Virus record (IMG/VR): IMGVR_UViG_2681813161_000004
Reading direction: 5' to 3' (one strand)
DNA: 22,216 nt
From: a virus
Taxonomy: Duplodnaviria > Heunggongvirae > Uroviricota > Caudoviricetes
Under the pieces are notes generated by a model that saw only the letters and a list, made by a program, of their open reading frames with translations, did no database searches and was not told the DNA's origin. The position numbers and the translations under genes are program-made. The stretch's first letter is position 1; each line of letters begins with the position of its first letter. This document shows, one piece after another, positions 18,752-22,216 of this stretch.

Positions 18752-19335
18752 CCCAAATGTATCCTCAGTTGCTGTTTCAGGGCATACCCCAGCTGTTTCG
18801 GCATTTCCGCGGCAATGATGCGGTCGCGGGCATCCTCAAATGCCTGTGTCAGCGGTCCGGCCAGCGGAATTTTCACAACCTCCACGGGCAGACGATTTTT
18901 TCTGGGCCGCCCCTTACTGTCCTTTCCTGTTTCAAAACACGCTTCAGGAAGACGCCTGAGAACATGCCAGCGACCGTTCGCCAGCTGCTGGATAAACGCA
19001 CCACGAAAAAAGTATTTCCCCACCTTCAGTCCGTCACCGGCACGCCGGCATGTTGTGCCAAGCTTAATGGCGGGCAGATTGCCCCGGTTAACACGGATAC
19101 GGGCATACATTTTTCCTGCCGGACTGGCTTTAAATACCCGGACGCGCTGACGCACCAGTTTCAGGGGGCCCCCCTTCACCTGGTTATCTCCCGCAACGGT
19201 ATTCCTGGCGACCTGCCGGGTGGCAACCGAGACAACTTTTGCAGCAACCCGGTTTACTGCCCATGCGCTGGCCTGCGGCACCATACGGGTATCAAGACTG
19301 TTCAGATTGCGGATGGCATTCTCAAGCCCCCTCAT
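18748..19335 (-). CDS. Z: Tail completion protein Z
   Basis: 195-aa ORF MRGLENAIRNLNSL...AVNRVAAKVVSVATRQVAR...GAFIQQLANGRWHV...VVKIP...LGYALKQQLR, matching lambda Z from recall. Confidence 0.88.
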   Translation of the reverse strand: MRGLENAIRNLNSLDTRMVPQASAWAVNRVAAKVVSVATRQVARNTVAGDNQVKGGPLKLVRQRVRVFKASPAGKMYARIRVNRGNLPAIKLGTTCRRAGDGLKVGKYFFRGAFIQQLANGRWHVLRRLPEACFETGKDSKGRPRKNRLPVEVVKIPLAGPLTQAFEDARDRIIAAEMPKQLGYALKQQLRIHLG

Positions 19336-19469
19336 AATATCCCCCTGCCCTTACGTTTCCTGCTCCTTCACGCCGCAACCGGATATAACTACATCCGCCG
19401 TCATCAGGAGTAATACGATCCACGCTGAAAGACTCCCGGCCAATCATCAGCGAATCATTGCGACACAGC
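19322..19469 (-). pseudogene. FII: 3' fragment of the FII-like head-tail joining gene, 5' part removed at the IS66-family element boundary
   Basis: - strand frame open from the IS boundary: ...AMIGRESFSVDRITPDDGGCSYIRLRREG..., compare the lambda FII C-terminus ...TLTIGEENFWVDRVSPDDGGSCHLWLGRG from recall; no start codon; frame ends 11 nt inside Z. Confidence 0.6.
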
Positions 19470-19566
19470 TGTAAAATATCGTAAGCGTAAACTGACCGCC
19501 GTATGTAGCCATTAAGCCTGTATTGGTAACGTAGGTGCCCACCTTTTCAACTAGTGGACACCTGTT

Positions 19567-19986
19567 ATGGAACAGAAAGCATTATCTGCAGAACCCCGCA
19601 GATCATTTTCAAATGAGTTTAAACTTCAAATGGTTAAACTGGCTTCACAACCAGGAGCCTCTGTTGCCCGTATTGCCCGGGAACACGATATCAATGATAA
19701 CCTGCTGTTCAAATGGCTCAGGCTCTGGCAGAACGAAGGGCGCATATCGCGGCGTCTTCCGGTAACAACCTCTTCTGACACTGGCGTTGAATTATTACCT
19801 GTGGAGATAACGCCGGATGAGCCGAAAGAACCTGTGGCTGCTCTTACTCCGTCTTTATCTACTCAGACTACAGTTAGTGCCAGCTCCTGCAAGGTGGAGT
19901 TCCGTCACGGTAACATGACGCTGGAAAATCCTTCACCAGAGCTGCTCACAGTGTTGATCCGTGAACTGACCGGGAGGGGACGATGA
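19567..19986 (+). CDS. tnpA: IS66-family accessory protein TnpA
   Basis: 139-aa ORF, first gene of the IS66-type triplet; stop overlaps the tnpB start (ATGA). Confidence 0.8.
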   Translation: MEQKALSAEPRRSFSNEFKLQMVKLASQPGASVARIAREHDINDNLLFKWLRLWQNEGRISRRLPVTTSSDTGVELLPVEITPDEPKEPVAALTPSLSTQTTVSASSCKVEFRHGNMTLENPSPELLTVLIRELTGRGR

Positions 19987-20333
19987 TCTCACTCCCGTCA
20001 GGCACCCGCATCTGGCTCGTTGCTGGGATAACCGATATGCGTAAGTCTTTCAACGGGCTGGGTGAACAGGTACAGCATGTGCTGAATGATAATCCCTTCT
20101 CCGGTCACCTGTTCATCTTCCGTGGCCGACGGGGTGACATGATTAAAATCCTGTGGGCTGATGCTGATGGTCTGTGCCTGTTCACCAGACGCCTGGAGGA
20201 AGGCCAGTTTATCTGGCCTGCTGTGCGTGACGGCAAGGTATCCATTACCCGCTCGCAACTGGCAATGCTCCTCGATAAGCTGGACTGGCGTCAGCCAAAA
20301 ACATCCCGCCTTAATGCACTGACAATGTTGTAA
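19983..20333 (+). CDS. tnpB: IS66-family accessory protein TnpB (IS66 Orf2-like)
   Basis: 116-aa ORF MISLPSGTRIWLVAGITDMRKSFNGLGEQVQ...LFIFRGRRGDMIKILWADADG..., the conserved IS66 Orf2 pattern. Confidence 0.85.
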   Translation: MISLPSGTRIWLVAGITDMRKSFNGLGEQVQHVLNDNPFSGHLFIFRGRRGDMIKILWADADGLCLFTRRLEEGQFIWPAVRDGKVSITRSQLAMLLDKLDWRQPKTSRLNALTML

Positions 20334-20363
20334 AAATGTCATGGCCGGATTATAAAAACGGCC

Positions 20364-21956
20364 ATGAATCAAAAATACCTCATTCGCATTGCAGAACTGG
20401 AATGCCAGCTCCGTCAGAAAGACCAGCAACTGAGTCTGGTTGAAGAGACGGAGGCCTTCCTGCGCTCTGCACTGGCCCGCGCCGAAGAAAAGATCGAAGA
20501 AGATGAACGGGAAATAGAACATCTGCGGGCTCAGATAGAAAAACTGCGCCGGATGCTGTTCGGTACCCGTTCTGAAAAACTGCGTCGTGAAGTTGAACAG
20601 GCTGAGGCCCTGCTGAAACAACGCGAACAGGACAGTGATCGTTACAGTGGGCGGGAAGACGATCCGCAGGTTCCCCGCCAGTTGCGACAGTCTCGTCATC
20701 GTCGCCCGTTACCGGAGCATCTGCCCCGCGAAATAAATCGCCTGGAGCCAGAAGAAAGCTGTTGCCCGGAGTGTGGCGGTGAGCTGGATTATCTGGGGGA
20801 AGTCAGCGCAGAACAACTGGAACTGGTGAGCAGCGCTCTGAAAGTGATCCGCACAGAACGGGTAAAAAAAGCCTGTACAAAATGTGACTGCATCGTTGAA
20901 GCACCGGCACCATCCCGTCCGATAGAGCGTGGTATCGCGGGCCCGGGGTTACTTGCCCGCGTGTTAACGGGAAAATACTGCGAACACCTGCCACTGTATC
21001 GTCAGAGTGAAATTTTTGCCCGTCAGGGTGTCGAACTGAGCCGTGCATTACTCTCCAACTTGGTTGACGCGTGCTGCCAGTTAATGACGCCGCTGAATGA
21101 TGCTCTGTACCGTTATGTAATGAACAGCCGCAAAGTTCACACTGATGACACACCAGTAAAAGTGCTGGCACCGGGCAGGAAGAAGGCGAAAACAGGATAT
21201 ATCTGGACGTATGTCCGGGATGACAGGAATGCCGGTTCGCCAGAGCCTCCGGCGGTCTGGTTCGCCTACTCACCGGACCATCAGGGTAAACATCCGGAGC
21301 AGCACCTTAGTCCCTTCCGGGGTATCCTGCAGGCAGATGCGTTTAATGGTTACGATCGGCTGTTCAGTGCCGAACGAGAAGGCGGCGCGTTGACGGAAGC
21401 AGGATGCTGGGCTCATGCGCGGCGCAAAGTCCACGATGTATATATCAGTACCAAAAGCGCGACAGCGGAAGAAGCCCTGAAACTAATCGGTGAGCTGTAC
21501 GCCATCGAGCACGAAATACGCGGGTTGCCGGTGTCTGAACGCCTGGCGGTCAGGCAAATGCAGAGTAAACCGCTACTGACTTCCCTGTATAAGCTGATGC
21601 AGGAGAAAGAACACACGTTATCGAAAAAATGCCGTCTGAGAGATGCGTTCCGGTATATCAGGAAGCACTGGGTTGCGTTGTGCAACTTCAGTGATGATGG
21701 TCTGGCTGAGGCGGATAATAATGCCGCGGAAAGAGCGCTTCGTGCAGTCTGTCTCGGAAAGAAAAACTTTATGTTCTTCGGCAGCGATCACGGTGGAGAG
21801 CGTGGTGCGCTGCTGTACGGGCTGATCGGCACCTGCCGACTGAACGGTATCGATCCGGAAGCGTATCTGCGCTATATCCTGAGCGTACTGCCGGAATGGC
21901 CTTCCAACCGTGTTGACGAACTCCTGCCATGGAACGTAGCACTCACCAATAAATAA
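20364..21956 (+). CDS. tnpC: IS66-family transposase TnpC
   Basis: 530-aa ORF with N-terminal coiled-coil, Cys cluster CPECGGEL...CTKCDC and a long catalytic domain; third gene of the IS66 triplet. Confidence 0.85.
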   Translation: MNQKYLIRIAELECQLRQKDQQLSLVEETEAFLRSALARAEEKIEEDEREIEHLRAQIEKLRRMLFGTRSEKLRREVEQAEALLKQREQDSDRYSGREDDPQVPRQLRQSRHRRPLPEHLPREINRLEPEESCCPECGGELDYLGEVSAEQLELVSSALKVIRTERVKKACTKCDCIVEAPAPSRPIERGIAGPGLLARVLTGKYCEHLPLYRQSEIFARQGVELSRALLSNLVDACCQLMTPLNDALYRYVMNSRKVHTDDTPVKVLAPGRKKAKTGYIWTYVRDDRNAGSPEPPAVWFAYSPDHQGKHPEQHLSPFRGILQADAFNGYDRLFSAEREGGALTEAGCWAHARRKVHDVYISTKSATAEEALKLIGELYAIEHEIRGLPVSERLAVRQMQSKPLLTSLYKLMQEKEHTLSKKCRLRDAFRYIRKHWVALCNFSDDGLAEADNNAAERALRAVCLGKKNFMFFGSDHGGERGALLYGLIGTCRLNGIDPEAYLRYILSVLPEWPSNRVDELLPWNVALTNK

Positions 21957-21986
21957 GCGTCAATACGGTGCTCCGTTGACGCTTAC

Positions 21987-22216
21987 GAAACTGCTGGGAT
22001 AACAGCCCAATGGAACGCTTCTTCAGGAGTCTGAAGAACGAATGGATGCCGGTGGTGGGTTACGTAAGCTTCAGCGAGGCAGCTCACGCCATAACGGACT
22101 ATATCGTTGGATATTACAGCGCACTAAGACCGCACGAATATAACGGTGGGTTACCCCCAAACGAATCGGAAAAGCGATACTGGAAAAACTCTAACTCGGT
22201 GGCCAGTTTTTGTTGA
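21987..22216 (+). pseudogene. 3' fragment of an IS3-family (IS3-like) transposase orfB, abutting the IS66-family end; the element continues beyond the window
   Basis: Frame open from the junction: ...[75 protein letters not shown]-stop, the C-terminal region of an IS3-family DDE transposase; no upstream catalytic region present. Confidence 0.8.

Follow-up and report, generated by a model that had tools for sequence, protein, structure and literature searches.

Insertion sequences (IS) of the IS66 family, among them IS66, IS679, ISEc8, ISEc23, and ISEc43, carry the genes tnpA, tnpB, and tnpC, the last of which encodes a transposase with leucine-zipper, zinc-finger, and DDE domains, and they are bounded by terminal repeats of ∼24 bp for which GTAAGCG is the family consensus. 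In Shigella, defective prophages that bear ipaH (termed "ipaH islands") are a known feature, and Yang et al. reportedly described, in 2005, IS-mediated deletions, duplications, and rearrangements in the genomes of this genus. Deletions and rearrangements caused by IS copies are frequent in Shigella, inversions and pseudogenization driven by them are documented as well, and IS66 has expanded only in some lineages of the genus (PMC8072062; PMC7373316). Here we describe an IS66-family element near the right-hand end of a 22,216-nucleotide stretch of DNA (hereafter, the window; IMG/VR virus record IMGVR_UViG_2681813161_000004), where it joins a remnant of FII, the head-tail joining gene of an ipaH-carrying lambdoid prophage, to the 3′ end of a copy of IS911. 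The element lies between these two sequences without a target duplication. The joint is a rearrangement and not a simple insertion, and we lean, by a modest degree, toward the reading that one IS66 copy gained its flanks from two different earlier sites through recombination of directly repeated copies, with later losses.

The window element is a standard member of the IS66 family, as had been claimed in the original prediction, which was made from the sequence alone. It is an intact insertion sequence of 2,506 bp (19481–21986, plus strand), with its left inverted repeat at 19481–19504 and its right inverted repeat at 21963–21986 (GTAAGCGTAAACTGACCGCCGTAT and ATACGGTGCTCCGTTGACGCTTAC). These 24-bp terminal repeats are imperfect (the arms are 85% complementary) and start with GTAAGCG, as in the rest of the family. 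Between them, on the plus strand, tnpA (19567–19986) encodes an IS66 accessory protein of 139 amino acids that matches the Pfam family HTH_Tnp_1 and the NCBIfam model for IS66-like TnpA (NF047595, 87.7 bits against a cut-off of 74), and tnpB (19983–20333) encodes an IS66 Orf2-like accessory protein of 116 amino acids (PF05717, E = 2.6e-36; NCBIfam NF033819, likewise above its cut-off). The two genes overlap by 4 bp, and both lie upstream of tnpC (20364–21956), which encodes an intact IS66 DDE transposase of 530 amino acids with the domains LZ_Tnp_IS66, zf-IS66, DDE_Tnp_IS66, and DDE_Tnp_IS66_C (matches to PF03050, with E = 7.9e-95, PF13817, PF13007, and PF13005; NCBIfam NF033517, 444.6 bits against a cut-off of 180). 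All three open reading frames (ORFs) are intact, with scores that exceed the curated thresholds of Pfam and NCBIfam.

Copies of the element fetched from Shigella assemblies differ from the window copy by only 0–6 single-nucleotide polymorphisms (SNPs), and copies in E. coli FDAARGOS_943, which the Prokaryotic Genome Annotation Pipeline labels only generically as "IS66 family transposase," are 99.4% identical. Nucleotide identity is ∼88% to ISEc23 and ∼93% to copies annotated as ISEc43. The 8-bp target duplication of the family is found in the sister copies of the element, and it is the sole IS66-family feature that is absent from the window copy.

The 8 bp on the two sides of the window copy differ: the left flank is AAAATATC (19473–19480, plus strand), which is FII sequence, and the right flank is GAAACTGC (21987–21994, plus strand), which is IS911 sequence. 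Both flanks had been quoted correctly in the original prediction, although the boundary between FII and the element had been placed at 19469/19470, 11 bp away from the true boundary at 19480/19481. Taking the ends as GTAAGCGT...ACGCTTAC, we extracted 8 bp from each side of every copy of the element in the fetched Shigella loci. Perfect 8-bp duplications occur at nine independent sister sites (L015/L018, L019, L020, L021, L022, L034, L035, L042, and L043), the duplicated sequences being TACTGAGA, TTTTATTC, GACGGAAG, GCAGCCAG, GACGTACC, AGATGTTG, CCCCTTCG, GAATGTCG, and GAAGAATT. Because the same definition of the ends yields nine perfect duplications, the ends are right and the element normally duplicates 8 bp of its target, and the absence of a duplication from the window copy therefore marks a rearrangement. 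The more distant relative ISEc23 also duplicates 8 bp in E. coli (CCATGTCG in L001). The claim that FII is truncated without a target duplication thus holds: an 8-bp direct repeat at the corrected ends was looked for and is not there.

Two other accounts of the flanks were tried and rejected. The inverted repeats can be extended by a fortuitous 2 bp (TC...GA), and the flanks shifted in this way (GTAAAATA and AACTGCTG) do not form a repeat either, while the sister copies validate the original ends. A shared insertion site for IS66 elements within IS911 was likewise set aside, as in E. coli 14EC047 the ISEc23 copy sits elsewhere in IS911, with a normal duplication, and no site specificity exists. 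The window copy does have company: the duplication is absent at four of the 13 distinct IS66 sites sampled (the window joint, L014/L041, L016, and L040), so that IS66 copies with hybrid flanks are common in these genomes. IS66 copies have thus repeatedly acted as substrates for rearrangement in these Shigella genomes. One of the three other sites without a duplication joins a fragment of a tail-fibre-assembly gene to a ynfO-like gene and lysis genes of another lambdoid prophage.

On the left of the joint, the FII remnant (19322–19480, minus strand) retains the C-terminal 52 codons and the stop codon, and its frame is open to the IS66 end. Its translation, DILQLCRNDSLMIGRESFSVDRITPDDGGCSYIRLRREGAGNVRAGGYYEGA, is free of stops to its 5′ edge and is 91% identical to residues 71–123 of the 123-amino-acid FII of E. 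coli (BLASTP, E = 2e-32). The remnant overlaps the start of Z (18748–19335, PF06763) in the same manner as in lambda, and in gene order and homology it corresponds to lambda gpFII; a Pfam scan of the 52-amino-acid remnant alone gave no match, while full-length homologues carry PF05354. Homology to FII ends exactly at the IS66 end, and the intact FII of E. coli, which reads ...gtAAAATATCtgctgttttcac... across the break, holds AAAATATC at the break point. The FII 5′ half was sought as a protein (expected to be 73 amino acids, i.e., 70 residues followed by DIL and a stop) and was absent among 68 FII homologues, in which the C-terminal remnant did appear. This result speaks, with moderate weight, for the loss of the FII 5′ half from these genomes. 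In P0019, an E. coli homologue of FII, the sequence breaks off after codon 70, a few bp at most from the point at which IS66 interrupts the Shigella gene, and the protein has a C-terminal tail that we take to resemble the translated end of IS1. Given this apparent cut by IS1 at the same codon, FII codon 70/71 may be an insertion hot spot; the proximity of the two breaks may reflect local AT-richness or may be coincidence.

On the right of the joint lies a 3′-terminal fragment of IS911 (21987–22216, plus strand) that holds the final 76 codons of orfB (stop codon at 22214–22216). The original prediction had recognized here the 3′ end of an IS3-family orfB whose frame is open to the junction, and the fragment can now be named more specifically: it is 99.6% identical over 230 bp to E. 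coli copies annotated as IS911, and as the C-terminal part of IS911 orfB it matches positions 310–368 of the IS3 transposase profile NF033516. The frame runs open from the IS66 junction to the stop at the last base of the window. Intact IS911 reads ...gagccggcgcgGAAACTGCtgggataac... across this point, and identity to IS911 begins exactly at the IS66 end, at GAAACTGC. Of IS911, the locus retains only the 3′ ∼240 bp and lacks the 5′ ∼1 kb. The end of IS911 lies ∼10 bp past the window, where it abuts codon ∼80 of uxaB (the continuation was read in L009, and the identity of uxaB was confirmed).

The joint of FII′, IS66, and IS911′ is present, with the same flanks, in all ten loci found through the exact Z protein (L004–L013), one of which has a single SNP in the right flank. 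Five more loci (L029–L033), found through the 68-amino-acid ORF of the IS911 fragment, share the gene arrangement across the joint, and three of these come from newly sampled assemblies. The sample amounts to 15 loci from 13 assemblies, with seven megabase-scale chromosome records, including CP000036.1, which we take to be that of S. boydii Sb227. Recurrence in all 15 loci rules out an assembly artefact, and the joint is thus a real and old feature that has become fixed in a lineage of Shigella boydii, the species to which the window belongs. A public assembly collection indexes the exact Z protein in 553 blocks (its cluster counts 379 contigs), with source names that include "MULTISPECIES: phage tail protein [Shigella]," and "partial" proteins at the contig ends of S. 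boydii drafts repeatedly show the FII remnant continuing into the IS66 end. Neither the joint nor the neighboring uxaB::IS911 junction was found in 5,426 complete genomes of E. coli.

The chromosomal context of the joint in Sb227 and other strains was compared with that of E. coli K-12. In Sb227, the genes to the left of the window are ydeJ, dcp, ydfG, rspR, ydfZ, and ydfI, followed by IS1, and the genes to the right of the IS911 fragment are uxaB′, dgcF, yneG, glsB, sad, ptrR, yneK′, ydeA, marC, marR, and marA. When read out to marA, the sequence after the IS911 fragment holds no head, lysis, regulatory, or integrase genes, in keeping with the claim that the locus has no head, lysis, or integration module. 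The truncated YneK, used as a query, had no exact S. boydii match. The 5′ half of FII was also sought just beyond the IS911 fragment, a position at which uxaB′ is found instead. In K-12 the order is uxaB (b1521), marA (b1531), ydeJ (b1537), and ydfI (b1542), followed by the Qin prophage, whereas in Sb227 the order on one strand is b1537–b1542, the prophage tail, the FII C-terminal remnant, IS66, the IS911 3′ fragment, and b1521–b1531. Both chromosomal blocks keep their K-12 orientation in Sb227, although in K-12 b1521–b1531 is upstream of b1537–b1542 and Qin. The joint links the downstream end of a ∼45-kb segment back to its own upstream start.

After a deletion starting from FII, the tail would be followed by DNA from downstream of the prophage, and after a single inversion one of the blocks would be flipped, so that neither event alone gives the Sb227 order. 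The original prediction of an IS-mediated deletion or inversion therefore stands in one part, namely that the prophage lost its head, lysis, and integration region through a rearrangement mediated by an IS, while a single deletion or a single inversion is contradicted by the gene order.

Qin of K-12 provides a close comparison for the prophage. Qin and the Shigella remnant occupy the same site by ydfI/ydfJ in the same orientation, with the tail-fibre end toward ydfJ, and both are defective lambdoid remnants with large internal losses. They differ in what was lost: Qin is without its tail and head genes and has kept its lysis, Q, immunity, and int′ genes, whereas in the Shigella remnant J through Z remain, together with lom and ipaH, and nothing is left from FII codon 70 onwards. 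At the far edge of the ydeJ block in Sb227, left of the window (L025 1311–2329), an inverted dgcZ′–mgtT piece sits just upstream of ydeJ, with an IS3-family element on one side and an IS1 on the other, and ydeI and most of dgcZ are missing. This inverted piece and the loss of ydeI and most of dgcZ indicate that further IS-mediated events took place at the other end of the translocated block. Further insertions of IS1, IS2, and IS600, as well as deletions, vary among strains in this region.

The reading toward which we lean, recombination between two IS66 copies, would begin with two ordinary insertions. At the first site, IS66 would have inserted in FII codon 71, with the target AAAATATC, in a lambdoid prophage that carried ipaH and occupied the Qin (ydfJ) site; at the second, it would have inserted in orfB of an IS911 copy within uxaB, with the target GAAACTGC, ∼25 kb upstream on the K-12 map. 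Both parental copies would have pointed in the same direction and thus formed direct repeats, and homologous recombination between them would yield exactly the end-to-start joint, either as the joint of a tandem duplication made by unequal sister exchange or by way of an excised circle that later reintegrated. Later deletions or rearrangements mediated by IS1 or IS3 would then have removed the 5′ halves of FII and IS911, the remainder of uxaB, and the head, lysis, and immunity/integration modules. The tail module and the joint are each listed once per genome, with no second similar place for Sb227, so that further events must have removed the rest, and the scrambled edge of the ydeJ block, along with the strain-variable IS insertions and deletions, makes such later losses plausible.

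Several observations weigh against this reading. It predicts two reciprocal joints, one between the IS66 right end and the FII N-terminal part (...GTTGACGCTTAC+AAAATATCTGCTGTTTTCAC) and the other between the IS911 5′ part and the IS66 left end (...GGCGCGGAAACTGC+GTAAGCGTAAACTG). Exact patterns for these reciprocal or parental junctions (IS911-5′/IS66-left and IS66-right/AAAATATC-FII-N′) matched in none of the fetched loci; a degenerate pattern for both gave 0 matches across one genome per GTDB species, a set in which Shigella is probably not separately represented; and a synthetic query for the IS911-5′/IS66-left joint had no full-length match in the 5,426 E. coli genomes. As neither a reciprocal nor a parental junction was found, we infer the two parental copies and have not seen them. 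Moreover, the IS66 copies differ by so few SNPs that a recombinant mosaic would be undetectable, the present order lies at least two further events beyond a duplication or circle, and the scrambled left boundary of the ydeJ block speaks for a complex history in which other multi-step paths are possible.

One alternative is an adjacent deletion mediated by the transposase, in which a single IS66 copy in uxaB::IS911 attacked AAAATATC in FII on the same molecule by intramolecular transposition and deleted the DNA from its left end to that target. This one step would account for the missing duplication, the lost FII 5′ half, and the lost IS911 5′ half together, it fits with the reciprocal junction being found in none of the searched sets, and the element is intact and evidently active in the lineage. 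We nevertheless consider this route possible but doubtful, as the K-12 order has uxaB upstream of the prophage and the deletion thus requires an earlier, unobserved translocation that placed the uxaB::IS911 block downstream of it. We also know of no demonstration of intramolecular deletion formation for the IS66 family, which counts against this alternative. More generally, it seems unlikely that the joint is a direct product of the IS66 transposase acting within one molecule, whether by adjacent deletion or by an event of the replicon-fusion type, and not of homologous recombination; if it were, a transposase-made joint would provide natural evidence on the poorly understood chemistry of IS66 transposition.

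Inversions alone, at least three of them between inverted IS copies, could in principle have brought the FII C-terminal part and the IS911 3′ part to either side of one IS66. Among the large rearrangements that have been reconstructed in Shigella, inversions are the most frequent (PMC8072062), and the small inverted dgcZ′–mgtT piece lies just left of the ydeJ block. However, both large flanking blocks keep their K-12 orientation relative to each other, at least three nested events with suitably placed pairs of inverted IS66 copies would be needed, and the head region would not be removed by this route itself, all of which makes it quite improbable. A simple insertion, with ends that were mis-defined or a duplication that has decayed, or else a chimera assembled at a repeated IS, is a further rival, and the 2 bp by which the inverted repeats can be extended do in principle permit other definitions of the ends. 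Against this, the GTAAGCG...CGCTTAC ends yield perfect 8-bp duplications at nine other sites, the flanks come from unrelated sequences (phage FII and IS911), and the joint recurs in 15/15 loci fetched across it, from 13 assemblies and seven megabase-scale chromosome records. Both simple insertion and assembly error are excluded by the sister-site duplications, the unrelated flanks, and the recurrence of the joint.

The remainder of the window belongs to the prophage that was cut at FII. Its lambda-type tail module (7980–19335, minus strand) comprises J, I, K, L, M, H, T, G, V, U, and Z, as identified from the ORFs, from the Pfam families of identical genes in the loci found through Z, and by tblastn. 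The tail proteins I, K, M, H, T, and G are 100% identical to reference proteins in a tblastn search against the window, and V is 99.6% identical; these genes are intact. The tail gene L is frameshifted (∼13279–13476, minus strand): relative to the intact 232-amino-acid L of another strain, tblastn places residues 1–66 in frame −2 and residues 37–232 in frame −3. No complete genome of E. coli exceeds 86% nucleotide identity to the tail DNA.

From its left end toward the joint, the window holds two IS1 copies, ipaH, tail-fibre assembly and tail-fibre genes, lom, an IS3-family element, and then the tail genes from J to Z. The ipaH gene (2283–4034, plus strand) is full-length and encodes 583 amino acids with LRR_TTSS (type III secretion leucine-rich repeat) and NEL E3-ligase domains; since it lies at the tail-fibre end of the remnant, the remnant is one of the chromosomal carriers of ipaH in Shigella. 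The IS3-family element between lom and J (6767–7923, minus strand), with an orfA of 100 and an orfB of 272 amino acids, is probably IS600. Sb227 is without this element before J, and its J has 1,159 amino acids vs. 1,149 in the window. The two IS1 copies (1–∼753 and 1213–∼1965) are spaced by exactly 1,212 bp, and the window begins within the first of them; a tandem duplication as the source of this spacing was rejected within the window, where the spacers differ. In CP160647.1, a unit of IS1 and a 444-bp spacer just left of the window start is tandemly duplicated, with 99.8% identity (L026 6507–8930).

With ipaH (leucine-rich repeat and NEL E3-ligase domains) by the tail-fibre genes of a defective lambdoid prophage that is riddled with IS1 and IS600, the window remnant resembles the "ipaH islands" and appears to be one of them. 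The joint likewise shares with the known IS-mediated rearrangements of Shigella an IS with hybrid flanks at a breakpoint of synteny, the loss of an E. coli gene (here uxaB), and the decay of a prophage; it differs in its end-to-start topology, which is less often discussed than inversions or deletions. We found no description of this particular joint. The joint is an ordinary, already known kind of IS-driven genome shuffling in Shigella, and it raises neither a new type of element nor a new question.

For the prophage, the consequence is that the remnant is unable to excise or to be packaged, and it still carries ipaH, lom, and the tail genes. The joint thus shows how an ipaH-carrying lambdoid prophage got locked into the S. 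boydii chromosome, with uxaB destroyed in the same set of events as the losses of the head, lysis, and integration modules. The end-to-start topology also offers a caution, in that an IS without a target duplication is not automatically the mark of a deletion or an inversion. The locus provides a concrete example of the IS-driven reduction and reshuffling of Shigella genomes.

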